Source: Patescibacteria group bacterium
GTDB taxonomy: Bacteria > Patescibacteriota > UBA1384 > XYA2-FULL-43-10 > 1-14-0-10-43-13
Assembly (NCBI GenBank): GCA_041649155.1
Contig: JBAZNP010000001.1
Location: forward strand, 302,564 to 366,563
DNA length: 64,000 nucleotides
Reading direction: 5' to 3'
Position 1 is the first letter of the stretch; every line of letters starts with the position of its first letter. Shown here piece after piece: positions 36,625 through 63,416 of the stretch. Made by a program: the position numbers and the translations under genes. The notes below the pieces were generated by a model, which worked only from the letters and a program-made list of their open reading frames with translations, ran no database searches and was not told the DNA's origin.

Positions 36625-36942
36625 ATGAAAAATTACTTTGTCTATATCCTGACAAGCAGAAGAAACGGCACATTATATATTGGCGTTACGAATAATTTAA
36701 TTAGAAGAGTTTGGGAACACAAAGAAAAATTAGTTGATGGTTTTACAAAAAAGTATGACATTAATAAATTGGTTTATTATGAAATGACCACGGATATTGA
36801 AGCAGCAATTAGCAGAGAGAAACTGTTAAAATCTTGGAATAGAAAGTGGAAAATGGAATTAATTGAGAAGGTAAATCCAAACTGGAATGATTTATATGAT
36901 GAATTGGTAAATACTGGATCCTCGGGTCAAGCCCGAGGATGA
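36625..36942 (+). CDS. GIY-YIG nuclease family protein (UPF0213/YhbQ-like)
   Basis: YFVYILTSRRNGTLYIGVTNNLIRRVWEHK is the GIY-YIG motif. The last 9 codons are encoded by the flanking palindromic repeat. Confidence 0.8.
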   Translation: MKNYFVYILTSRRNGTLYIGVTNNLIRRVWEHKEKLVDGFTKKYDINKLVYYEMTTDIEAAISREKLLKSWNRKWKMELIEKVNPNWNDLYDELVNTGSSGQARG

Positions 36943-36943
36943 C
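36916..36943. repeat. Family-A palindromic repeat unit, inverted orientation (GGATCCTCGGG-TCAAG-CCCGAGGATGAC)
   Basis: Its reverse complement differs by 1 nt from the unit at 44305-44332. Confidence 0.7.
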
Positions 36944-36985
36944 GAAGTGGAGTTTATGATGACGATATAAAAAAGGAGTTAAACC

Positions 36986-39366: not shown

Positions 39367-39505
39367 ATTAGAAGAGATAAGAGACAAATAGAAATTAATT
39401 TTTAAATCCTAATTTCTAATGTCAAACAAAATATCAAATGCTTAAATAATTTAGAAATTTGGAATTTAGATTTTTGTTTGTAATTTGTTATTTGGATTTT
39501 GAAAT

Positions 39506-40138
39506 TTAACTAGTTGTTGCTTCTTTTTTTGTGTGTTTGATATGTCTTAATACAAATAAAACCACGCAAGCAACAACAAGTATTCCAATGGCCATGTCAA
39601 AATTATGCAACTTTTCCCGTATCAGTTCCCAATTATTGCCCATCTTTATTCCTAACCAAGCAAAAAGTGCAGTCCAAGGCAAAGCACCCAAAGTCGTGTA
39701 AATTGAAAATCTTTTTACATCCATTTTTGATATGCCGGCCGGAAAAGAAATGTAGGTTCGGACAACTGGCAAAAGTCTTCCAAAGAAAACAGTCAGATCA
39801 CCATATTTTGCGAACCATCTGTCAGCCAGATCAAGATCGTGTTTTGAAATTAAAATATATTTACCATATTTTTCAATTAATGGACGACCACCTTTGTAAC
39901 CAATCCAATAAGCCAGAAGAGAGCCAGCTAAATTACCCAGAGTTCCCATTACAACAATTAGCCAGAAAAGCATTTTTCCGTCAGCAACCAAAAAACCGGA
40001 AAAAGGCATAATCACTTCTGAAGGCATTGGAATTCCGCAAGATTCAAGCATCATCAAAAGAAAAATACCCGGATATCCAAGAATTCCGATTGTGTGAACT
40101 ACAAACTGCGCTAGAATATCGATAATGTCTGTAACCAT
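39506..40138 (-). CDS. DedA/SNARE-associated family membrane protein
   Basis: GYPGIFLLMMLESCGIPMPSE motif. Confidence 0.8.
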   Translation of the reverse strand: MVTDIIDILAQFVVHTIGILGYPGIFLLMMLESCGIPMPSEVIMPFSGFLVADGKMLFWLIVVMGTLGNLAGSLLAYWIGYKGGRPLIEKYGKYILISKHDLDLADRWFAKYGDLTVFFGRLLPVVRTYISFPAGISKMDVKRFSIYTTLGALPWTALFAWLGIKMGNNWELIREKLHNFDMAIGILVVACVVLFVLRHIKHTKKEATTS

Positions 40139-40145
40139 TGTTCTC

Positions 40146-41144
40146 CTAGTCCTGAATTAGGTTAATAATTAACTTAATTATAGCATCTTTTTCTCTTGGA
40201 TTGCTCGAAGCAACAAGCAAAGCCAACGCCACTAACGTACGATCAGAAATTTTTGTTTCACCATTTTCTTTAAACAGAAAATTGTTCTTTTCTAAAAAAT
40301 ATAAGAATAAAAGCGACCCAATACGCTTATTGCCGTCAGAAAAAGGGTGGTCTTTTATTACAAAATACAATAAATGAGCTGCCTTTCCCTCGACTGAACC
40401 ATATAAATCTTCTCCACCAAAGGTCTGATAAAGATTGCCAATAATACCCTCAAACTGATGGTCCCTTTCAGAGCCGAAAAGATCGCCAACAATTTTCTTG
40501 GCGATTAAATCATCTTTTAGTCTGTCAATAATTTCACGACATTTGTAATACTTGAGAGCAAATTTAGCTTTCTTTTGCTTTTTAATTTCGATTTTGTTTT
40601 CATCATACTCACCCAGCACTTTCCATGTTTTGGAATACCTTTCGATGACATCTAGAATTTCTTGTTCGTGACCAGTAAGTTCAACTTGTTTCGCTTTTTC
40701 TGTAATAAATCTAATGATCGATTGAACCTCTTTAAATTTTTTATCGTTGATTGCGTAACCTTTGACTAAATAATTGCGCAGCGTTTTGGTCGCCCAGACA
40801 CGAAAATCAGTCGCTTTTTTAGAACTAACACGATATCCAATAGATAAAATCATATCCAAATTATAGAACTTAGTGTCATAAACCTTCCCGTCACTGGCAG
40901 TTATCCGGAATTTCCGGATAACTGAATTCTCTTCCAACTCTGCCTCTTTAAAAATGTTCTTTATATGCTCATTGATCGTTCGAACATCTTTACCAAAAAC
41001 TTCCCCAATTTGTTTTTGCGTCAGCCACACAGTCTCATCTTGGATTTTTGTCTTAATTTCAATGTTACCAGACTTCGATTTGTAAATTATTAATTCCCCT
41101 TCTTGCTTCATAATTCCTTCTTTTTTAAGTATATTGTAACACAA
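40146..41144 (-). CDS. RhuM-family N-domain fused to a Doc/Fic toxin-like domain
   Basis: N-terminal RhuM-like HTH region (WLTQKQIGEVFGKDVRTINEHIKNIF). C-terminal Doc-type motif HPFSDGNKRIG. The real start is probably the internal M at ~41111. Confidence 0.65.
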   Translation of the reverse strand: MCYNILKKEGIMKQEGELIIYKSKSGNIEIKTKIQDETVWLTQKQIGEVFGKDVRTINEHIKNIFKEAELEENSVIRKFRITASDGKVYDTKFYNLDMILSIGYRVSSKKATDFRVWATKTLRNYLVKGYAINDKKFKEVQSIIRFITEKAKQVELTGHEQEILDVIERYSKTWKVLGEYDENKIEIKKQKKAKFALKYYKCREIIDRLKDDLIAKKIVGDLFGSERDHQFEGIIGNLYQTFGGEDLYGSVEGKAAHLLYFVIKDHPFSDGNKRIGSLLFLYFLEKNNFLFKENGETKISDRTLVALALLVASSNPREKDAIIKLIINLIQD

Positions 41145-41187
41145 AACACGCCTAAGCCGCTTAATACTTGATATAAAATACCAAATA

Positions 41188-43494
41188 TTAGCCTTTAGGC
41201 CATTTTGAGATCATTATTGACTCACAAAGTTCTGGATAAATATTCCTAAGCTCCTGCCAGACTGCTTCAGTTACAAAAGGCACAAATGGATGAAGCATTA
41301 TAAGAGTTTCCGAGAGAACTTTTATTAGTACCTTTTTAGTTGTCAGTTGTAAGCCGTGCCTACCGGCAGGCAGGTTGTCAGTTGTAAGTTGCGTTTTAGC
41401 AACTTCGATATACTCATCGCAGAAATCATGCCAGAAATAGTCATAAATTTCCTCGCCGGCATGAGAGAAACGAAATTCGTTCAATTTTTTAGTGATGGAT
41501 TTTTTAACTTCTTCATGCTTTTTCAAAATCTCTTTGTCTGGACCAGTCAATATTTTTTCGTCAATATTCAAATTAGTAACTTTTGTTTCGCCGATTTTTC
41601 CGCTTTGAATGTCGCCTTCAGATACTCGTAGCATTACAAAACGAGAAGCATTCCAAATCTTATTTGAAAAATTACGGTAGCCTTTAATTTTTGCTTCACC
41701 AAGCGCAACGTCCTGTCCCGGTGTCGAACCGACAACCAAAGCCATTCGCAGAGCATCTGTGCCGTACTTATCGATAATATCCAAAGGATCCAAAACATTG
41801 CCAAGAGACTTGCTCATCTTTCGATTATGCTCATCCCGAACCAGACCGTGAAGATATACCGTTTCAAAAGGAACCTCTCCTGTTAGCTCTAGTCCCATCA
41901 TGATCATTCGAGCAACCCAGAAAAATAAAATATCGTAACCGGTTTCAAGCACATTTGTCGGATAAAAAGATTTTAAATCATTTGTTTCTTGTGGCCAACC
42001 TAAGGTTGAAAATGGCCACAAAGAAGACGAAAACCAAGTGTCTAAGACATCTTCGTCTTGCTCCCAATTTTCAATATCTTTCGGCGGCTCGACACCGACG
42101 TAAATATTGTCCTGACCCTGACAGGATTTCTCGCCTTCATTCATCCGCCCAACGGCGGGTTCTGAATGGGTCGAAATGACATCTTGGAATTTGGGATTTG
42201 GGACTTCATTAGAAATTAGAAATTCGGAATTAGAAATTCCCCGTCTGTACCAGACGGGTATCTGATGTCCCCACCAAAGTTGGCGAGAGATGCACCAATC
42301 ACGAATGTTGTCCATCCAGTGAAAATATACTTTTTCAAAACGCTCCGGAATTATTTTGATTTGTCCGGATCTTACAGCCTCTTTGGCTTTTTCTGCCAAA
42401 GGCGCCATTTTTACGAACCACTGCAAAGAAGGAAGGGGCTCAATTGTGCCGCCACATCGATAACAAACGCTCAAATTATTTGTATAATCCTCTTCTTTTT
42501 CGAGCAAATCGTTTTCTTTGAAATATTGAATTAATTTCTCTGCCGCTTCCTTTGTTTTTAAACCTTGATATTTGCCGGCCTCTTCAGTCATTCTGCCATT
42601 TTCATCTATGACTTTGATTTTTTCAAGTTTATGATCTTCGGACATCTTCCAGTCAGTCATTGAATGAGCTGGTGTTACACCAACTGCGCCGGTACCAAAT
42701 TTTTCATCAATTGACCTATCGGCAATAATTTTGATCTTACGCTTAACGCCGTCAAGATCAATTTCATATTCTTTACCGATAAATTCTTTGTATCGCTTAT
42801 CGTTCGAGTTAACAGCAACGGCCACATCACCAAGCTTGGTTTCCGGTCTCGTAGTCGCGATTGTTATCGGGAAATTTTTATCATATTTGAAATAATAAAG
42901 TTTTGATGACTTTTCAATGTGTTCAACCTCGTCATCAGCAATAGCCGTGTGGCATTTCGGGCACCAGTTAACAATGTAATTACCTCGATAGATAAGGCCT
43001 TTTTTATAAAGCCTGGTGAATGCTTCATTAACTGCCTTGTTTAATCCTTCATCAAGGGTAAATCTTTCCCTTGACCAATCACAGGATGAACCAAGCCGGC
43101 GAAGCTGATTTGTAATCGCATTACCATGCTCCTCTTTCCACTTCCAAACCTCCTCAACAAATTTGTCCCTACCGATTTCGTTTTTGTTAATGCCTTTTTT
43201 GCGAAGAGATTTATCAACCACAGTTTGAGTGGCAATGCCAGCGTGATCTGTGCCGGGAAGCCAAAGCGATGGCTCGCCCAAAAGGCGATGGTATCTAGTT
43301 AAAATATCTTCAAGAGTTGAAAACATGGCATGACCAAGGTGAAGTTTGCCGGTTACATTCGGAGGCGGCATCATGATTGTGAACGGCTTGCCATCCAGAT
43401 TCACTTCAGGTTTAAAATAGCCGGATTTTTCCCAGTTATTATAGATCTTCTCTTCAAATTTTTGCGGCTCGTAAGCCTTAGAAATTTCTTTCAT
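41188..43494 (-). CDS. valS: Valyl-tRNA synthetase, carrying a ~47-aa in-frame repeat-derived insertion
   Basis: HIGH-like PPPNVTGKLHLGHA, KMSKS, DVLDTWFSS. The track ORF extends to 43617, but its first 41 codons are translations of the intergenic repeats. The true start MKEISKAYEP is at 43494. Confidence 0.9.
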   Translation of the reverse strand: MKEISKAYEPQKFEEKIYNNWEKSGYFKPEVNLDGKPFTIMMPPPNVTGKLHLGHAMFSTLEDILTRYHRLLGEPSLWLPGTDHAGIATQTVVDKSLRKKGINKNEIGRDKFVEEVWKWKEEHGNAITNQLRRLGSSCDWSRERFTLDEGLNKAVNEAFTRLYKKGLIYRGNYIVNWCPKCHTAIADDEVEHIEKSSKLYYFKYDKNFPITIATTRPETKLGDVAVAVNSNDKRYKEFIGKEYEIDLDGVKRKIKIIADRSIDEKFGTGAVGVTPAHSMTDWKMSEDHKLEKIKVIDENGRMTEEAGKYQGLKTKEAAEKLIQYFKENDLLEKEEDYTNNLSVCYRCGGTIEPLPSLQWFVKMAPLAEKAKEAVRSGQIKIIPERFEKVYFHWMDNIRDWCISRQLWWGHQIPVWYRRGISNSEFLISNEVPNPKFQDVISTHSEPAVGRMNEGEKSCQGQDNIYVGVEPPKDIENWEQDEDVLDTWFSSSLWPFSTLGWPQETNDLKSFYPTNVLETGYDILFFWVARMIMMGLELTGEVPFETVYLHGLVRDEHNRKMSKSLGNVLDPLDIIDKYGTDALRMALVVGSTPGQDVALGEAKIKGYRNFSNKIWNASRFVMLRVSEGDIQSGKIGETKVTNLNIDEKILTGPDKEILKKHEEVKKSITKKLNEFRFSHAGEEIYDYFWHDFCDEYIEVAKTQLTTDNLPAGRHGLQLTTKKVLIKVLSETLIMLHPFVPFVTEAVWQELRNIYPELCESIMISKWPKG
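42110..42262. repeat. Composite palindromic repeat insertion inside valS (GC-rich hairpins plus TTAGAAATT motif)
   Basis: Hairpins CCCGTCTG-TAC-CAGACGGG and GGAATT-AGA-AATTCC, plus a GAAATGAC terminus. They encode RGISNSEFLISNEVPNPKFQDVISTHSEPAVGRMNEGEKSCQGQ between the conserved WY and DNIYVG. Confidence 0.7.
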
Positions 43495-43542
43495 CACAAT
43501 TAAAATATCACAAGAGAGCTTTAAGCGCCAGAACCAATATTT

Positions 43543-43615
43543 GTCATTCCCGTGTAGACGGGAATCTACTAAAAGATATAAAACTATCTTGGATCCCCGC
43601 CTTCGCGGGGATGAC
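43543..43615. repeat. Family-A composite element (two inverted hairpin units plus 21-bp spacer), intergenic between valS and tsaD
   Basis: GTCATTCCCGTGTAGACGGGAATCTAC ... GGATCCCCGCCTTCGCGGGGATGAC. Confidence 0.8.
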
Positions 43616-43632
43616 ATGGAAAATAAGAAATG

Positions 43633-44832
43633 TCATATCTCTAAATTTGAATTGATTTCAATGTCTTTCCATGTTGAAATATTTTTCTTTTGAATATGGT
43701 AGTAAGCCGCTAGCCCGATCATTGCGGCATTATCACCACATAAATTTTTAGGCGCAGGTAAAAATTTTATACTGTTATCTGTTATCTGTATTCTGTATGC
43801 TAACTCGCTTCTCAAGCGAGTATTGGCAGCAACTCCTCCGGCCAGCACAACTGCTTTCGGCTCAAATTTCTCCACTGCCCTCATCGTTTTTGTAACCAGC
43901 ACATCAACAACAGCATCCTCAAAAGCAGCACAGATCTCTTCCTTTTGATCTTCCGAAATTAATCCCTGCTTTCTTGAATCAATCACTTTCTGGAGTACTG
44001 CAGTCTTAAGCCCAGAGAAAGAAAAGTTAAAAGTTCCATTATTCAGGATTGGTCTCGGAAAAATAATCCCTTCTCTGCCCTCTACCTTCCCCTTTCTACT
44101 TCTAAACTTGCTTGCGAGCTTAGAAACCACTGGTCCACCTGGATAGCCTAGCCCGAGCAACTTAGCCACCTTATCAAAAGCTTCGCCTGCCGCATCGTCT
44201 AAAGTCTGCCCGATCGTTTCGTATTCTCCATGATCTTTCATAAGTGTCAGCGAAGTATGACCGCCACTTACAGTTAATGATAAGACTGGAAATTGACACG
44301 AAGTGTCATCCTCGGGCTTGACCCGGGGATCCACTAATAGTAGATTCCCGCCTTCGCGGGAATGACAATAAGCGAAAGCGGAGTATATGTGTCCTTCTAT
44401 GTGATTTACGGGAATAATCGGCTTATCCAAAGAATAAGCCGTGGCCTTTGCAGCATTAAATCCGACTAAAAGAGATCCGATTAAACCTGGACCATTAGTA
44501 ACGGCAATGTGAGTGATATCATTCTGAAGCACTTTTATAGCCTCAGAATAGTTACTAGTTCCTAGTTTCGAATCATTAGAATCCTTGTAACTAGTGACTT
44601 GTAGCTTGTTACTCGCCTGAATCAATGCTTCCGTTATCACTGGAATAATATTTTCCATATGAGCACGACTGGCCACTTCAGGTACGACTCCGCCTGTTAT
44701 CGCATGCAAATCGACTTGAGAATTTACAATATTTGATAGAACAATAGGATTGCCATCTTTTTCGCCAATTACAGAAGCAGCCGTCTCATCGCAGCTCGTC
44801 TCAATAGCTAATATTTTAATATCTTTTTTCAT
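43633..44832 (-). CDS. tsaD: tRNA N6-adenosine threonylcarbamoyltransferase TsaD/Kae1, carrying in-frame repeat insertions
   Basis: ILAIETSCDETAASV...GGVVPEVASRAH...NGPGLIGSLLVG...SGGHTSL. At 399 aa it is ~60 aa longer than a typical TsaD. Confidence 0.85.
   Translation of the reverse strand: MKKDIKILAIETSCDETAASVIGEKDGNPIVLSNIVNSQVDLHAITGGVVPEVASRAHMENIIPVITEALIQASNKLQVTSYKDSNDSKLGTSNYSEAIKVLQNDITHIAVTNGPGLIGSLLVGFNAAKATAYSLDKPIIPVNHIEGHIYSAFAYCHSREGGNLLLVDPRVKPEDDTSCQFPVLSLTVSGGHTSLTLMKDHGEYETIGQTLDDAAGEAFDKVAKLLGLGYPGGPVVSKLASKFRSRKGKVEGREGIIFPRPILNNGTFNFSFSGLKTAVLQKVIDSRKQGLISEDQKEEICAAFEDAVVDVLVTKTMRAVEKFEPKAVVLAGGVAANTRLRSELAYRIQITDNSIKFLPAPKNLCGDNAAMIGLAAYYHIQKKNISTWKDIEINSNLEI
43771..43800. 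repeat. Family-C repeat copy (ACTGTTATCTGTTATCTGTATTCTGTATGC) inside tsaD
   Basis: Near-identical to 60617-60647. Inverted copy at 45554-45580. Confidence 0.6.
44305..44366. repeat. Family-A composite element inserted in-frame within tsaD
   Basis: GTCATCCTCGGGCTTGACCCGGGGATCCAC TAATAGTA GATTCCCGCCTTCGCGGGAATGAC. Translated as ...AYCHSREGGNLLLVDPRVKPEDDTSCQF... Confidence 0.8.
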
Positions 44833-44844
44833 AAATAATGATTT

Positions 44845-44866
44845 GAGCCCCGACGTGTCGGGGCTC
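44845..44866. terminator. GC hairpin GAGCCCCGAC-GT-GTCGGGGCTC, possible terminator or attenuator between convergent gene ends
   Basis: Perfect 10-bp stem. The flanking T run is only moderate. Confidence 0.35.
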
Positions 44867-44891
44867 TGTTCTTTGCCGACATGTAGTAATG

Positions 44892-45194
44892 TTAATATGC
44901 ATTCTTGCTTGCTTTAAGTTTCTTGTTTAGCCGCATATGGTCGATTAATATTCCCAACACCAGCCCAATGATAATCTCTGCTAGATACCAAGACCCGATT
45001 GAAACATGAAGTACCATCGTCCCCACGATAAGCGCACCGAATGGTAGCAGAAAGAAAACATGATAAGAGTATCTGTTGAAATCAAGCGACAAGATGCCAC
45101 CCTGTTTTGGGCTCACACTTATAAACTCTCCAAAACGTACAAACAATACTCCAAGCACTAGTGCGCTTAAAATTACAAAAACTTGAATTGCCAC
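44892..45194 (-). CDS. Small hydrophobic membrane protein, function unknown
   Basis: 100 aa with 3 predicted TM helices. Confidence 0.4.
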   Translation of the reverse strand: MAIQVFVILSALVLGVLFVRFGEFISVSPKQGGILSLDFNRYSYHVFFLLPFGALIVGTMVLHVSIGSWYLAEIIIGLVLGILIDHMRLNKKLKASKNAY

Positions 45195-45314
45195 TATAGC
45201 ACCTCTCTGTCGACACTAAAACTATACCATTTACGCTCGATTAAAGCAACGAAGTTTGTTGGTTATCCTCCCCTCGACTTGCTAGGGCTAATTTGATACT
45301 CTAAAAGTGACGTA

Positions 45315-45381
45315 GTCATCCCCGCGAAGGCGGGGATCCATAAAACTATTTATATAGATTCCCGATCAGGTCGGGAATGAC
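45315..45381. repeat. Family-A composite element overlapping the annotated start of the femAB-like gene
   Basis: GTCATCCCCGCGAAGGCGGGGATCCA TAAAACTATTTATATA GATTCCCGATCAGGTCGGGAATGAC. Confidence 0.8.
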
Positions 45382-46375
45382 ACATGGAATGAATTCATCA
45401 ATCTATCAAACCCCCGAGTGGGAACAATTCAAGCTTAAAACCGGATACGAGAAAAGCTACCGTATTGAAGACATTTTAGTATTGCAAAAAAAGTTACCTT
45501 TCGGCAGAACCATGCTTTACTCACCAATGGTGAGCGAGCACCAGCTCGCTGGTATTCAGAATGCAGATAACAGAATACAGAAAGATTTTGTAACTGGAAT
45601 AAAAAAGGTTGCGGAAGAAAATAATGCAATATTTTATCGCTTAGAATTAGATATTCCAAAAGAACTTTCCACTTTCCACTTTCCACTTTCCACTCGAAAC
45701 TTTCAAAAAAGTTTCGAAGAGATGCAGCCTGAAAATAATTGGGTGGTTGATATTACAAAAACCGAAGATGAAATACTGGCTCAAATGAAGCAAAAAGGCC
45801 GATACAACATTAGAGTGGCAGAGAAAAACAATATCGAGATAACATCATCAGACAAAGCTGGGAAAGAACTGGATGTTTTTTACGATCTGTATTCAAAAAC
45901 CGGCAAACGAAAAGGCGTTACCTATAGAGGCAAGGCATATTTCGAAAATCTGCTTGATATTTTAGGCAAAATTGACTATGCTAGAACGTACGCCGCTACA
46001 GCAAAAATCAACAGTAAAACTGTTCCCCTTGCTGCTGCTGTCATAATTTTTTATAAAAAAGAAGCGCTCTACCTCTACGGCGGATCAAGCGACGAATATA
46101 AAAATTTGATGGCTCCTTACCTTCTCCACTGGAAAATCATGCTTGATGCGAAAGAAAAGAGAATTGAAAAATACAATTTTCTAGGCGTGGCTCCCGCCGG
46201 AACAAGCCCTCTGGGCGAGGCCACTGACGACCCTTCCCATCCATGGGCCGGCATCACAAGATTCAAAAAACAATTTGGCGGTGAACAGAAAGATATTCTG
46301 GGCAGTTACGATTTAATCCTGAAGCCGCTTGAGTATCAATTGTTTAAAATAGCAGAAAAAATAAGACGCAAATAA
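45377..46375 (+). CDS. FemAB-family peptidoglycan aminoacyltransferase
   Basis: KQKGRYNIRVAEKNNIEI and YLLHWKIMLDAKEKRIEKYNFLGV match FemXAB signatures. The true start is probably the ATG at 45389, because the track start lies in the repeat. Confidence 0.65.
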   Translation: MTHGMNSSIYQTPEWEQFKLKTGYEKSYRIEDILVLQKKLPFGRTMLYSPMVSEHQLAGIQNADNRIQKDFVTGIKKVAEENNAIFYRLELDIPKELSTFHFPLSTRNFQKSFEEMQPENNWVVDITKTEDEILAQMKQKGRYNIRVAEKNNIEITSSDKAGKELDVFYDLYSKTGKRKGVTYRGKAYFENLLDILGKIDYARTYAATAKINSKTVPLAAAVIIFYKKEALYLYGGSSDEYKNLMAPYLLHWKIMLDAKEKRIEKYNFLGVAPAGTSPLGEATDDPSHPWAGITRFKKQFGGEQKDILGSYDLILKPLEYQLFKIAEKIRRK

Positions 46376-46481
46376 TTTAAAATTTTTATTTATTAATTTT
46401 TATTCAATTTTTAATGTTCCAATGTTTAAGAATTTAAAATTAGAATTTGATTAGAAATTAGATATTAAGAATTAGAAATTT

Positions 46482-47807
46482 ATGAAGCTTCTTTCTAAGC
46501 TCCTATCTCGATCAACAAAAAATAAACTCCACCTTCTAAAAGCTAAGGTGGCTAATTTTCAGTCTGGTTATCCATCCAAAAAAATCAAGGTTATTGGCGT
46601 GACCGGCACAAAAGGTAAAACTTCAGTATGTAACATGATCGCCTCTGTTCTCGATGCAGCCGGTATAAAGAATGCCATGGAAACAACCATCAACACTAAG
46701 ATCGGCGACAAAGTAACTCCTCACAAAACAAAAACCAGATGGGTTACCACTCCTCCAGCTTCAGTCGTCCAAAAATTCCTGAAAGAAGCAGTTAAGGAAG
46801 GATGTGAATACGCAATTTTAGAAGTCTCCTCTCAGGCAATCGATCAAAATCGAATTTACGGTATCGATTTTGATGTTCTGGTTTATACCAACTTGTCACA
46901 TGAGCACATGGAATATCACAAAACAAGAGAAAATTATTTAGCAGCAAAGTTAAAGCTTTTTATCGATAATCCCGAAGCCAAATCAGTAGTAAATATGGAT
47001 GACGCGAACTGGACCAAATTTCATGGTCTACCAGCAAGAGAAAAGTTTTTGTACTCCGTAAAAAAATCAGTTGATCACGGCATTGTGGCTAGAAAAATTT
47101 TACCAAGCGCAAATAGTATCACCTTTACAGCTGCCTATGAGAACGGACAGAACACTGTAAATTTGAATTTACCCGGTGTGTTTAATGTGCAAAATGCTTT
47201 GGCCGCCTTCTGTGCCGGACTGGCTTTAAATATTGATCCCGAGAAAATCAAGAAGGGTCTCGAGAGTATTGAACTAATCTCTGGTCGGATGGAAGCAATT
47301 AAAGTTTCCAAAGATCAGGATTTCACGGTAATAGTAGATTATGCTCACAATGCTGACTCATTAAAGAATGTCTATGAAACAATCCGTGAAGGAATGAAAA
47401 ACTCCGGAGGAAGATTGATCGCTGTCTTAGGAGCTACCGGCAGAAGAGATGCCACGAAACGGCCAATAATGGGAGCATTGGCTGGCCGATATGCTGACTT
47501 GGTGATTTTTACCGACGAAGATCCATACGACGAAGAGCCTTCTGCAATCATTGAAGAAGTGGCTGAAGGAATTCATAAGGGAGCAAAGAAAAAACATCAA
47601 TGGAGGCTGCACAGAAACTATTGGAAAGTTCTCGACAGAGCACAGGCAATTCACAAAGCAATAAAAGAAGCACAAAAAAATGATGTTGTCGTAATCACAG
47701 GCAAAGGGGCAGAGGAAGTAATGGCAGTCGGCCTTGATAAATTTATTCCTTTTTCAGATCGCAAAATCGCAAAAGAAGAACTCTCTAAAAGATTTCCAAC
47801 CATGTAA
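46482..47807 (+). CDS. Mur ligase family protein (MurE-like)
   Basis: VIGVTGTKGKTS P-loop and Mur ligase middle and C-terminal domain pattern. Confidence 0.65.
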   Translation: MKLLSKLLSRSTKNKLHLLKAKVANFQSGYPSKKIKVIGVTGTKGKTSVCNMIASVLDAAGIKNAMETTINTKIGDKVTPHKTKTRWVTTPPASVVQKFLKEAVKEGCEYAILEVSSQAIDQNRIYGIDFDVLVYTNLSHEHMEYHKTRENYLAAKLKLFIDNPEAKSVVNMDDANWTKFHGLPAREKFLYSVKKSVDHGIVARKILPSANSITFTAAYENGQNTVNLNLPGVFNVQNALAAFCAGLALNIDPEKIKKGLESIELISGRMEAIKVSKDQDFTVIVDYAHNADSLKNVYETIREGMKNSGGRLIAVLGATGRRDATKRPIMGALAGRYADLVIFTDEDPYDEEPSAIIEEVAEGIHKGAKKKHQWRLHRNYWKVLDRAQAIHKAIKEAQKNDVVVITGKGAEEVMAVGLDKFIPFSDRKIAKEELSKRFPTM

Positions 47808-48139: not shown

Positions 48140-48273
48140 AAGACACAAGATACAATCAACCAATTAAATCTCAATGCTCAATTAATCAATGTTCAAACGT
48201 TTGAATCTTTGGTGATTGATTGTTGAATATTGTTTGGTTATTGTTCCTTGTCTCTTGTATCTTGCTTGTCTCC
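48140..48273. repeat. Family-D element: inverted heptamer-iteron arrays around a central palindrome TTCAAACGTTTGAA
   Basis: AAGACAC AAGATAC ... TTCAAACGTTTGAA ... CTTGTCT CTTGTAT CTTGCTT. About 80% identical to the copy at 63284-63416. Overlaps the 3' end of the recombinase gene. Confidence 0.7.
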
Positions 48274-49329
48274 TAACAAGCTCTTGCCGTGAAACTTTTG
48301 GTGTATTTCTCTTAAATGCTGATCGGTGACATGGGTATAAACCTGAGTGGTTGTTATCGAAGAGTGGCCAAGAAGTGACTGTACGCTTCTAATATCAGCT
48401 CCAGAAATTAACAAGTCAGTTGCAAAAGAATGTCTCAAGGTGTGAGGTGAAACCTTTTTGGCCAATCCTGCTCTTGTTGAATATTTTTTAACAATTCGCT
48501 CAATGGACCTAACCGTTAATCTCGTTTCTTTATTGGATAAGAATAAAGGAGGACTATTCTTCGAGGTCGATTTATCGGCCGAGAAGTTCTCCTGATAGTT
48601 CTCATCTTTCAGATTCGAACAATAGCCTCTCTCTTCCAAATATTCCTTTGTTGAACTTATTGCGCTCATTGACAAAAAAACGACTCTAAGCTTTTTACCT
48701 TTACCCAAGACAGCAATCTCGCCTCTTTCAAAATTTAAATCAGAAACATTTAATGAAGCAAGTTCTGACACTCTCATGCCGGTAGAAAATAAGATTTCCA
48801 GAATTGCACGATCTCGCAAACCAGAGGTAGAGTTTGTGTTAGGAGCATTTAAAATCGAATTCATTTCCTCTGATTCTAGAAAAGTAATTTCTCTGTCTCC
48901 TGTCTTTGCAACCGATACCTTTTCCGGAGACAAAGAACCTATGCCCCTAAAAGCCAGATACCGCAAAAAAGCCCTCAGCGCTAAAATATGATAATTCTGA
49001 GTCGATTTTTTTAGTTCCTTGCCATATCGATCCAGCAGGCGATTTACATGCAAGCGATATTGGCGAACAGCTTCCTGATCAATATCAGCAGGAGCAAGCT
49101 CTAATTTTTCATTTACCATTTTACATTGATCATTTATTTTGTCATTTATCATTTGATCATTTGGGTTTATTTCGGATTTCGGATTTCGGATTTCGGATTT
49201 ATAAGTTTCTAACCAAGTTAGAAACTTAGTAAGGTATCTATCGTAACCAGAAATGGTCAGGGCGGACCGCCCTTTGTCAAGTTCGCAGTATTCTAAGAAT
49301 TCTCTTTTGAGATTAAACAGATCAGGCAT
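48238..49329 (-). CDS. Tyrosine site-specific recombinase (XerC/XerD/integrase family) with a low-complexity N-terminal insertion
   Basis: Catalytic motifs RVSELASL, HTLRHSFATDLL and GHSSITTTQVYTHV. Confidence 0.85.
   Translation of the reverse strand: MPDLFNLKREFLEYCELDKGRSALTISGYDRYLTKFLTWLETYKSEIRNPKSEINPNDQMINDKINDQCKMVNEKLELAPADIDQEAVRQYRLHVNRLLDRYGKELKKSTQNYHILALRAFLRYLAFRGIGSLSPEKVSVAKTGDREITFLESEEMNSILNAPNTNSTSGLRDRAILEILFSTGMRVSELASLNVSDLNFERGEIAVLGKGKKLRVVFLSMSAISSTKEYLEERGYCSNLKDENYQENFSADKSTSKNSPPLFLSNKETRLTVRSIERIVKKYSTRAGLAKKVSPHTLRHSFATDLLISGADIRSVQSLLGHSSITTTQVYTHVTDQHLREIHQKFHGKSLLGDKQDTRDKEQ
49169..49200. repeat. Heptanucleotide tandem repeat (ATTTCGG) x4.6 inside the recombinase coding sequence
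   Basis: tatttcggatttcggatttcggatttcggattt, encoding ...NPKSEIRNPKSEI.... Confidence 0.8.
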
Positions 49330-49942: not shown

Positions 49943-50749
49943 ATGATAGAAGTATATCGATCTTTAATCATTGGAGCCGTTCAAGGTGTAACGGAATTTT
50001 TACCGATTTCGTCGTCGGCCCATTTGGTACTCGTGCCATATATCTTTAATTGGGATTATAAGGGCTTGAGTTTTGATATCGCCCTTCATTTTGGCACCGT
50101 AATTGCAATAGTAGCCTATTTTTGGAAAGACTGGATGGTTTTAATAAAGTCGGCAGCCAGCAGTCGGCAGCCAGCAGATAGTGACCCAGCAAAATATCCA
50201 AAAAATCTTCTTTGGCAGATAATAATTGCAACGATTCCCACAGCTATTATTGGTTATTTAATAAGTGATTACGTAGAAAGTACTTTTCATTCGCCAATTT
50301 TACTTGCATCCAATTTGGTTATATTTGGCATAATCTTATATTTAGTTGATCTTTTTACAAAAACAAGCAGTCAAATTTCCAACATTGGCTACAAACAAAC
50401 ATTTACTGTTGGTCTAGCTCAATGTCTGGCTTTAATTCCCGGCGTGTCACGCTCCGGAATTACAATGATTGCTAGCCGATCACTTGGCCTCGACAGAGAA
50501 AACGCCGCCCGATTTTCTTTCTTATTGGGTACTCCAGCTATGATCGGAGCATTCATATTTGATATTAAGGACTTACCCCTAAGCTCAATAAATTTGCCAT
50601 TCATTTTAGGGGTAATTTCATCAACATTTTTTGGTTTTCTGACAATTAAATATTTGTTACAATATTTAAAGAGGGGCAATTTTTCTGTATTTATGTGGTA
50701 CCGGATCCTGCTTGCAGGAATAGTTCTAGCGATTTATTTTGCAAGATAA
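49943..50749 (+). CDS. uppP: Undecaprenyl-diphosphatase
   Basis: GVTEFLPISSSAHL and ISRSGITM motifs. Confidence 0.9.
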   Translation: MIEVYRSLIIGAVQGVTEFLPISSSAHLVLVPYIFNWDYKGLSFDIALHFGTVIAIVAYFWKDWMVLIKSAASSRQPADSDPAKYPKNLLWQIIIATIPTAIIGYLISDYVESTFHSPILLASNLVIFGIILYLVDLFTKTSSQISNIGYKQTFTVGLAQCLALIPGVSRSGITMIASRSLGLDRENAARFSFLLGTPAMIGAFIFDIKDLPLSSINLPFILGVISSTFFGFLTIKYLLQYLKRGNFSVFMWYRILLAGIVLAIYFAR

Positions 50750-51193: not shown

Positions 51194-51236
51194 TGTTCCT
51201 TGTTTGTAATTTGTATCTTGTAACTTGTTTCTTAAA
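51194..51236. repeat. Family-D heptamer-iteron array, reverse arm, downstream of the four-helix-bundle gene
   Basis: aattgttccttgtttgtaatttgtatcttgtaacttgtttctt. Shares attgttccttgt and tgtatcttgtaacttgt with 48241-48270 and 63381-63416. Confidence 0.55.
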
Positions 51237-58627: not shown

Positions 58628-58742
58628 CATAATCAATAATTCCAAAATCCTAATGACTAATTACAAATAAAATGTCAAATGATTTAATGTCAAAAAACTC
58701 AGTAATTTGAAATTAGGATTTAGAAATTAGCAAATAATCAAG

Positions 58743-61850: not shown

Positions 61851-61870
61851 CCTGCCTGCCGGCAGGCAGG
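61851..61870. repeat. Perfect GC palindrome CCTGCCTGCC-GGCAGGCAGG after the M15 gene stop
   Basis: 20-bp perfect palindrome with no adjacent T-run. May be a terminator or another repeat unit. Confidence 0.4.
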
Positions 61871-63283: not shown

Positions 63284-63416
63284 AAGATACAAGAAACAAG
63301 AAAGCAATGACCAAACAATATTCAATAATCAATCGTCAAAGACTCAAATGTTTGAATATTTTGAATTTGGATATTTGAGATTGTTTGTATCTTGTAACTT
63401 GTATCTTGTTTCTTAG
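63284..63416. repeat. Family-D element: inverted heptamer-iteron arrays around central TCAAATGTTTGA, no cargo
   Basis: AAGATAC AAGAAAC AAGAAAG ... TCAAATGTTTGA ... TGTATCT TGTAACT TGTATCT TGTTTCT. About 80% identical to 48140-48273. Confidence 0.7.

Follow-up and report, generated by a model that had tools for sequence, protein, structure and literature searches.

The DNA analysed here, to which we refer as the window, is a stretch of 64,000 nucleotides from a Patescibacteria group bacterium (assembly GCA_041649155.1, contig JBAZNP010000001.1, positions 302,564 to 366,563 of the forward strand), and within it we examined valS, the gene for valine--tRNA ligase (valyl-tRNA synthetase, ValRS), whose conserved sequence is interrupted in frame by a segment of 47 codons made of heptanucleotide arrays and hairpins. 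The encoded protein matched the Pfam families tRNA-synt_1 (8.8e-145) and Anticodon_1 (1.6e-27), aligned with the ValRS of T. thermophilus (PDB 1GAX) at 1.9e-194, and carries HLGH at residue 52 and KMSKS at residue 559; by these class Ia criteria the gene is a valyl-tRNA synthetase. The form that starts at 43494 (768 amino acids) is identical to the NCBI protein P0001 of a Patescibacteria metagenome-assembled genome, and the open frame itself extends further (41188..43617, minus strand). The clade to which this ValRS belongs (704-770 amino acids) ends shortly past the anticodon-binding domain and has no counterpart of the C-terminal coiled-coil, the last ~150 residues of the T. thermophilus ValRS; the 1GAX alignment ends at chain residue 696 of 862. 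The gene and the parts of its insert are as follows.

41188..43494, minus strand: valS, valine--tRNA ligase, 768 amino acids, host gene of the insert (assigned by Pfam, 1GAX and motifs).
42106-42246, minus strand: the variable segment in its full length (R417-N463, 47 codons), bounded by the conserved WY and IYVG, in frame and with no stop.
42240-42258: junction hairpin, perfect over 8 bp, CCCGTCTG-GTA-CAGACGGG on the coding strand and CCCGTCTG-TAC-CAGACGGG as quoted by an earlier reading (found by folding and scanning).
42208-42238, minus strand: heptamer array 1, the 31-nt module AATTTCTAATTCCGAATTTCTAATTTCTAAT, encoding ISNSEFLISN (TRF period 7, 4.4 copies of ATTAGAA).
42184-42203, minus strand: heptamer array 2, (ATCCCAA)n on the coding strand, encoding PNPKFQ (TRF period 7, 2.9 copies of TTGGGAT).
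42110-42181, minus strand: GC-rich palindromic element of 69-72 nt with TGTCAT...GAGAAATC termini.
42124-42181, minus strand: long imperfect palindrome TGTCATTTCGACC...GGCGAGAAATCC with the inner hairpin CCGCC-GTTG-GGCGG, encoding VISTHSEPAVGRMNEGEKS (DNA fold z -1.9 and -2.4).
42145-42158: core hairpin CCGCC-CAAC-GGCGG of that palindrome.
42110-42126, minus strand: small 3' hairpin TCCTG-TCAGGGT-CAGGA that closes the GC-rich element, encoding SCQGQ (found by folding).

An earlier note, prepared from the sequence alone (hereafter the sequence-only reading), had proposed an in-frame insertion of about 47 amino acids at this place, built from hairpins and from two dispersed repeat families that it called A and B. 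The insertion was borne out, as were all three hairpins that it quoted (here located at 42240-42258, 42226-42240 and 42145-42158). The 47 codons between Y416 and I464 translate without a stop to RRGISNSEFLISNEVPNPKFQDVISTHSEPAVGRMNEGEKSCQGQDN, and they are flanked by the conserved stretches ...QIPVWY and IYVG...DEDVLDTWFSS. The same interval holds five residues in E. coli (WY-DEAGN-VYVG), one fewer than the approximately six that had been given for this short gap, and three in the shortest relatives (WY-KGE-EIYVG), so that the net excess is 41-44 amino acids, not far from the proposed 47. The alignment with 1GAX is interrupted exactly here, where 60 residues of the query and 30 of the chain stay unaligned. 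The insert is a nested composite of heptamer arrays (eight degenerate units, 42184-42238), the GC-rich palindromic element (42110-42181) and the junction hairpin (42240-42258). Over the hairpin region (42105-42195) both of the other frames of the minus strand contain stops, and the predicted tryptic peptides of the segment include GISNSEFLISNEVPNPK and FQDVISTHSEPAVGR. The motif TTAGAAATT occurs 10 times in the window (3.4 expected), three of these within the insert. When the whole 186-nt insert region was folded as RNA, the z-score was only -1.8; neither a promoter nor a terminator was found inside the insert, and an E-value scan of 41000-45500 gave no Rfam match in it, the only hits of that scan being sub-threshold matches to FtrB on family A units outside it.

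The part that had been described as a family B motif is real and widespread, and it turned out to consist of heptanucleotide tandem arrays (TTGGGAT x2.9 and ATTAGAA x4.4). The AT-rich hairpin GGAATT-AGA-AATTCC at 42226-42240 is a by-product of the heptamer array. The window has 19 arrays of period 7 against 2.6 expected, and the loci of two sister genomes were similarly rich (L001, 22 against 0.45 expected; L003, 11 against 0.35); tandem arrays with this period characterize the lineage. At least five genes of the window contain them in frame (ValRS, TsaD, one FemAB-like and one integrase-like gene, and a further one), and some stand directly upstream of start codons. The 31-nt module (AATTTCTAATTCNNAATTTCTAATTTCTAAT) has a second copy in the window at 46450-46480 (28 of 31 nt), and 32 of 33 nt are identical between the ValRS genes of the window and of L001 at the same site. 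All ten module codons are identical between these two genes, while codons are identical at 54.6% of conserved residues gene-wide (chance ~0.002), which points to conservation at the level of DNA rather than of protein. In the sister genomes the module was found in ValRS, in an integrase (in frame) and in an intergenic leader of L001, and in TsaD of L003 (in frame), and these genomes repeat its imperfect unit order, AATTTCT AATTCNN AATTTCT AATTTCT AAT, in spacers and in genes unrelated to one another. It also lies upstream of a Mur ligase gene in both the window genome and L001.

A scan of the GTDB representative genomes for the module returned at least 119 stretches. In Patescibacteria, copies are typically followed by ...AATCCCAAAT..., as in the window, and many of them have the same continuation as array 2 (for example L029, L074 and L090). 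Among the matches listed, 31 of 120 copies sit in long open frames, and of the in-frame copies (L006-L124) 29 read as ISNS[KQE]FLISN and two as LEIRNLELEI on the other strand, each strand having one open frame. The in-frame hosts in other Patescibacteria include UvrD, RecG, LeuRS, UvrC, an IleRS-type enzyme, a P-type ATPase, MnmA and Mur ligase; the eight host open reading frames (ORFs) that were checked with Pfam are unrelated housekeeping enzymes. The module may have spread by copying or may have arisen repeatedly by slippage and array dynamics. Full-text literature searches for the module sequence and for its peptide gave nothing, and nothing relevant was found on repeats in coding genes of Patescibacteria, the Candidate Phyla Radiation (CPR).

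The GC-rich palindromic element forms the other half of the insert. From GTC (42180) to CAG (42112) it measures 69 nt, or 23 codons, and it is bracketed by GAT and GAC (Asp) codons that might represent a target duplication. The element has a TGTCAT 5' tag, its stem reads ATTTCG...CGAGAAAT, and the palindrome is followed by a C; the stem TTTCGA/CGAGAAA encloses an interior of 37 nt, and nothing at the 3' end pairs cleanly, in inverted orientation, with the 5' end TGTCATTTC. It thereby shows, as TGTCAT...CGAGAAAT-C, the oriented 5' tag HGTCWY and the C past the palindrome that characterize the 'Ssn-related motifs' (SRM; PMC11893778). The GC-rich hairpins were found by custom scans, since the inverted-repeat search missed them because of indels. 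The best relative lies in an intergenic region of the sister genome (L001:15729-15768), where the ends share 17 of 18 and 12 of 12 nt. Elements with the termini TGTCATTTCGA...CGAGAAATC occur three times in 22 kb of L001, once in frame in an integrase. The same termini enclose variable palindromic interiors at more than 120 loci in metagenomes, over the whole range of GC contents and mostly as two-hairpin units. Both halves of the insert thus belong to sequence classes that recur elsewhere, as had been suggested: the 31-nt module in other genes and genomes, and the termini TGTCATTTCGA...CGAGAAATC in L001 and in metagenomes.

The hairpin-encoded half was unique to the window protein among 120 ValRS homologues, and a phmmer search of the 47-mer against 1.84 billion representative proteins returned one weak low-complexity match, so the peptide is not conserved. 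A six-frame peptide search of the hairpin (three candidates sharing words, none of which scored) and a 45-amino-acid peptide search (no candidate) were uninformative, the source protein P0001 being unlisted in either. The proposed likeness of the GC-rich part to family A held for the termini and the inner hairpin, while a plain copy of family A it is not. Family A in the window is a unit of 62-73 nt with two inverted hairpins, TGTCATTCCCG-N6-CGGGAATC ... GGATCCCCG-N6-CGGGGATGACA, and these hairpins nearly equal the Neisseria NTS consensus CGTCATTCCCGCGMAVGCGGGAATCYRG. The SRM pattern matched five places in the window (43542, 44304, 45314, 44340 and 36914) against 0.1 in shuffled sequences.

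At the upstream edge of the insert, the junction hairpin joins inserted and host sequence. Its left arm consists of the conserved codons P413-V414-W415 and its right arm of the first inserted codons, AGA CGG G; the sequence-only reading had counted the whole hairpin as inserted, which is correct for the right arm but not for the left. Its DNA fold has a z-score of -4.65, and none of 200 shuffles folded as well. The window contains 11 loci with a perfect GC-rich hairpin of 8 bp (0.27 expected), and the junction hairpin was absent from the sister genomes L001, L003 and L005.

The ValRS was compared with 120 homologues. The stretch from WY to Q-D-x-DVLDTW ranged from 21 to about 186 residues, and the site held nothing extra, one of several kinds of heptamer-type low-complexity peptide, or a Cys4 knuckle like that of T. 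thermophilus. NTS-type peptides (for example CHSGLDPES...RLRGNDK and VIPAKAGIQ) appeared there in at least six lineages, and three unrelated kinds of domain of 140-170 amino acids occupied the same place (P0024, P0054, P0092, P0099 and P0102; P0109, P0112, P0116 and P0119; P0056, P0089 and P0115), for which Pfam gave no significant family; a PUA/ASCH-like fold might be guessed for them. The four closest ValRS (about 83% amino acid identity) all differ at the site: one has the module with the hairpin, one the module alone, one nothing extra, and one other heptamers together with a zinc knuckle. In agreement with the view that the segment is an insertion missing from close relatives, the site is empty in P0004 (about 84% amino acid identity) and in forms of 717-720 amino acids; in L003 it holds the unrelated heptamers (AAGAATC)n and (GATTCAA)n. 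The flanking residues vary in step with the state of the site (EAPxGEGW, EPPKDIENW or the zinc knuckle), which suggests segment exchange or repeated turnover. The ISNS.FLISN part is, formally, conserved in other ValRS, and the sequence-only reading would have counted protein-level conservation against itself; however, this part is a DNA-level repeat common to unrelated genes, and the hairpin half is unique.

The AlphaFold (AF2) model has a mean pLDDT of 90, and its only stretch below 50 is residues 431-459, between the strands 414-417 and 464-466; the insert segment is predicted to be disordered, with a pLDDT of about 35. T. thermophilus has a different 30-residue segment at the same place. 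By its position the site would correspond to the peripheral subdomain CP3, which in IleRS varies in topology and zinc binding (PMC7191050). Since the insert would sit at the tip of a beta-hairpin in this CP3-equivalent subdomain, far from HIGH and KMSKS in sequence, the site probably tolerates inserts. The suggestion of a tolerant surface loop is thus supported by the model, in which this is the only low-confidence stretch, and by the relatives, in which the site appears as a hot spot with 0 to about 170 extra residues.

Composites of the two sequence classes are not confined to ValRS, as in one UvrC of Berkelbacteria the heptamer module and, behind it, a two-hairpin unit of NTS type are read in frame. 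We considered whether module and hairpins form one composite mobile unit and rejected this, as only 4 of the 120 copies among the matches listed had a TGTCAT-type terminus at a distance of up to 150 nt, against 4.8 expected. Module and hairpin therefore do not generally travel together, and the composites are best explained by successive hits in tolerant sites.

Taken together, we think it likely that the insert is a translated, tolerated passenger in the CP3-equivalent loop: DNA of selfish or slippage origin that built up step by step, forms a disordered extension at the protein surface and plays no part of its own in aminoacylation. The insert appears to be of two ages, the module being common to the sister genome and the hairpin having been found only in this genome. 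The heptamer module would accordingly have come first and the hairpin element later. In the first step, a heptamer array with the Patescibacteria-wide module AATTTCTAATTCNNAATTTCTAATTTCTAAT would have been placed 3-4 codons past the conserved WY, either at least as early as the split from the sister genome or recurrently; within genes, only the stop-free frame of the module (ISNS.FLISN) could survive. In the second, a palindromic element of 69-72 nt and of the TGTCAT...hairpin class, which is that of Neisseria NTS/dRS3 and the SRM, would have inserted next to the array on its 3' side, with a length divisible by three. In the third, the first two inserted codons would have come to match the neighbouring P-V-W codons exactly in inverted orientation, probably by template switching.

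Several observations weigh against this passenger explanation. No further copy of the exact hairpin variant was found in the 64 kb of the window, in the GTDB representative genomes (searched for the inner hairpin with a free loop) or in the JGI metagenome contigs (searched for an exact 20-mer), the source contig being in neither collection. The ValRS hairpin (42110-42181) fails the published SRM pattern HGTCWYN(0-2)YYVSBRHN(0-5)WNVSBRGN(0-2)RNCYNB, and its main fold is only modestly above shuffles (z about -2), as compared with z -4.3 and -6.1 for intact family A units. The 29-base heptamer pattern also occurs within plain (AATTYCT)n arrays of Bacteroidota, Campylobacterota and others, so that convergence, and not copying, could be the origin of the module. 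The 29:2 strand bias of the in-frame copies is not explained by a neutral passenger model. Finally, the module occupies the same ValRS position in branches that are 0.3-0.36 substitutions per site apart, and such persistence could mean that it is retained for a reason.

Some of these points are shared by the explanation that the insert is of purely local origin, in which heptamer slippage and template-switch or quasi-palindrome mutation inside the gene produced everything and nothing was imported from dispersed repeats. The many different period-7 unit types across the genes and spacers of the lineage, the unrelated heptamers of L003 at the same ValRS site, the occurrence of the 29-base pattern in arrays of unrelated phyla, the origin of the junction hairpin as an inverted copy of adjacent host codons, and the lack of a second copy of the main hairpin in the window, the GTDB genomes and the JGI metagenomes would all fit it. 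We nevertheless regard it as unlikely, because the oriented TGTCAT tag and the GAGAAATC end are typical of a widespread element class with an intergenic near-relative in L001, because the same imperfect unit order appears in unrelated genes and spacers of the same genomes, and because the ten module codons match those of L001 without exception.

A bolder proposal, which we think rather improbable, is that a strand-specific process in Patescibacteria writes the module (ISNS.FLISN), as well as hairpins of NTS type, into loops on the surface of essential proteins, with the hairpins serving as Ssn-type recombination breakpoints, like NTS in Neisseria, and the ValRS CP3 loop being exchanged as a cassette between lineages. 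If true, this would explain the four states in four relatives of about 83% identity, the patchy distribution over the tree of the 'empty', 'PPKDIENW' and zinc-knuckle alleles, and the whole-domain inserts at the same site, and the insert would mark a programmed hot spot of diversification rather than junk.

It is very unlikely, in our judgement, that the segment is a lineage-specific functional extension of CP3, such as a tRNA- or partner-binding arm kept by selection, with the repeat-like character of its DNA incidental. Many ValRS of the clade have peptides like ISNS.FLISN at this position and relatives have whole folded domains inserted there, as would be expected of such an extension, and compensation is conceivable because the clade has no counterpart of the C-terminal coiled-coil of the longer T. 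thermophilus enzyme. However, the closest relatives have no insert or an unrelated sequence, the same module stands in unrelated enzymes, the segment is predicted to be disordered, its hairpin-encoded half is unique, and the codon-level identity suggests a constraint on the DNA and not on the peptide.

That the segment lies outside the mature protein, being removed from the mRNA, bypassed by the ribosome or created by misassembly at a hairpin, is hardly credible: strong hairpins flank and fill it and it is present in only one assembly, but its length is an exact multiple of three without a stop, the other two frames over the hairpin region are closed, Rfam finds no match, L001 and L002 independently assemble the module half at the same place, the locus sits in a contig of 798,787 bp and, at 141 nt, the segment is much shorter than known self-splicing introns and inteins.

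Returning to the tolerated passenger, its closest analogue is the Rickettsia palindromic elements (RPEs), short palindromic repeats found in frame in unrelated housekeeping genes (Ogata et al. 2000, as summarised in PMC10969869). As far as they are described there, the likeness lies in an extra peptide translated at sites compatible with the fold, in a host-dependent bacterium with a reduced genome. The ValRS insert resembles RPEs in keeping the frame without a stop, in its palindromic DNA (main hairpin z -1.9 to -2.4, which is modest; junction z -4.65) and in its surface site; in copy number, there is one exact copy in the 64-kb window, with three elements of the same termini in 22 kb of L001. 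In that summary RPEs are of about 100-150 bp and fall into defined families with a conserved peptide, whereas the hairpin part in ValRS has 69-72 nt and a peptide without relatives; and, unlike RPEs, the insert is nested with heptanucleotide arrays.

NTS/dRS3 hairpins and SRM, which are partnered with GIY-YIG single-stranded DNA nucleases (PMC11893778), are approached by the family A hairpins (TGTCATTCCCGCGAAGGCGGGAATCTAC), which lie near the NTS consensus and match the SRM pattern (5 times against 0.1 expected), and by the ValRS hairpin in its oriented TGTCAT tag, its A/T-then-G/C stem and the C past the palindrome. The ValRS hairpin differs in its TTTCGA/CGAGAAA stem, its 37-nt interior and its failure of the SRM pattern, and the NTS/SRM elements are described as extragenic and clustered around genes (PMC11893778), not as in-frame coding inserts in Patescibacteria. 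By a crude motif scan, no GIY-YIG (Ssn-like) ORF was found in the 64-kb window, which covers 64 kb of a 799-kb genome. MITE and REP/BIME repeats (ERIC, BOX, Correia and the RAYT-associated REPs) are likewise small non-autonomous hairpin repeats with conserved ends and variable interiors, and occasional in-frame fusions are known among them (PMC10969869, PMC3733652). The family A two-hairpin unit resembles an inverted pair of ends without cargo; for the ValRS copy, clear terminal inverted repeats or a target duplication could not be shown, the 69-nt unit having only the GAT/GAC flank, and no transposase was identified. The insertions of CP3 and zinc-knuckle type (1GAX; IleRS CP3, PMC7191050) occupy the same fold position, between the WWGH.IP.WY strand and DVLDTWFSS, but they are folded and stable within lineages, whereas the ValRS insert is predicted to be disordered, is repeat-derived and differs among relatives of ~83% identity.

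The heptamer arrays can be compared with heptanucleotide simple sequence repeats, which share tandem 7-nt units in 5' leaders and genes, three units keeping the frame. The hmw promoters of Haemophilus influenzae carry 7-bp tandem repeats. The arrays described here differ in their shortness and degeneracy, in the variety of their unit types, in being fixed in frame, and in the recurrent 31-nt arrangement across the radiation; no evidence of phase variation was found for them.

Further repeats were found in valS itself and in its surroundings.

41341-41385, minus strand: second in-frame insert in ValRS, in the anticodon-binding domain, with the hairpin CCTGCCTGCCGGTAGGCA (peptide LPAGRHG), flanked by the 15-nt direct repeat CTTACAACTGACAAC.
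43542-43615: family A copy.
44296-44367: family A copy, in frame in TsaD.
45314-45382: family A copy.
39448-39507, 43767-43789, 44549-44567, 45557-45704, 46450-46480, 49104-49200, 50148-50177, 51204-51233, 58704-58735 and 63385-63414: examples of period-7 arrays, of many unit types.

The 15-nt direct repeat at the second ValRS insert looks like a target duplication; the hairpin of this insert resembles an intergenic hairpin at 61851-61870, and the relatives P0002 and P0003 carry at this site an NTS-type element, VIPAKAGIQ...LDPRVKPEDD. The family A unit at 43542-43615 (plus strand) lies in the spacer between TsaD and ValRS and falls within the longer valS ORF. A ValRS call of 809 amino acids in JGI/ENA, with the N-terminus MSSPRRRGS...DSRLHGNDK, stems from read-through of this unit, the NCBI start being 43494, and the N-terminal extension looks like an annotation artefact. 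Sub-threshold matches to FtrB (Francisella small RNA B, RF02748) fell on family A units at 44288-44395 (minus strand), 45293-45399 (plus strand) and 43579-43636 (minus strand), which scored 45, 34 and 27 bits, the gathering score being 66; they suggest an overlap of the FtrB family with the class of hairpin repeats to which family A belongs. A solitary hairpin of the SRM pattern, CGTCATCCTCGGGCTTGACCCGAGGATCCAG, at 36914-36944 (minus strand) overlaps the 3' end of the ORF 36625..36942.

TsaD (43633-44832, minus strand) is also a repeat hot spot. It contains, in frame, the NTS-type two-hairpin unit at 44296-44367 (CHSREGGNLLLVDPRVKPEDDTS) and a heptamer-derived insert at ~44527-44631, about residues 68-102, that is not in solved TsaD structures (6n9a); the protein has 451 amino acids in L003 and 585 in L001. 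The integrase-family gene (48238-49329, minus strand, in the window; 2531-3799 in L001) has the long in-frame arrays (ATTTATC)x8.6 and (ATTTCGG)x4.6, which encode NPKSEINPNDQMINDKINDQCKMV, and the integrase of the sister genome has a near-identical stretch, NDQM.NDKINDQC.MV. The module next to the Mur ligase gene adjoins its start codon (46440-46482 in the window, 5931-5990 in L001) in the orientation opposite to the gene, with no obvious Shine-Dalgarno sequence, and may be a conserved leader element.

Overall, these results suggest that the colonisation of coding sequence by repeats, best known from Rickettsia, also shapes essential translation enzymes in the CPR. We did not find heptamer arrays with a recurrent 31-nt arrangement, or NTS/SRM-type hairpins read in frame, described in this role. 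For the Ssn/NTS field, near-consensus NTS hairpins are extended to Patescibacteria and to coding regions. In annotation, repeat DNA would account for many stretches of CPR proteins that are called 'low-complexity' and for many of their spurious N-terminal extensions; and for the evolution of the synthetases, the comparison pinpoints a loop of ValRS that accepts from 0 to about 170 residues.

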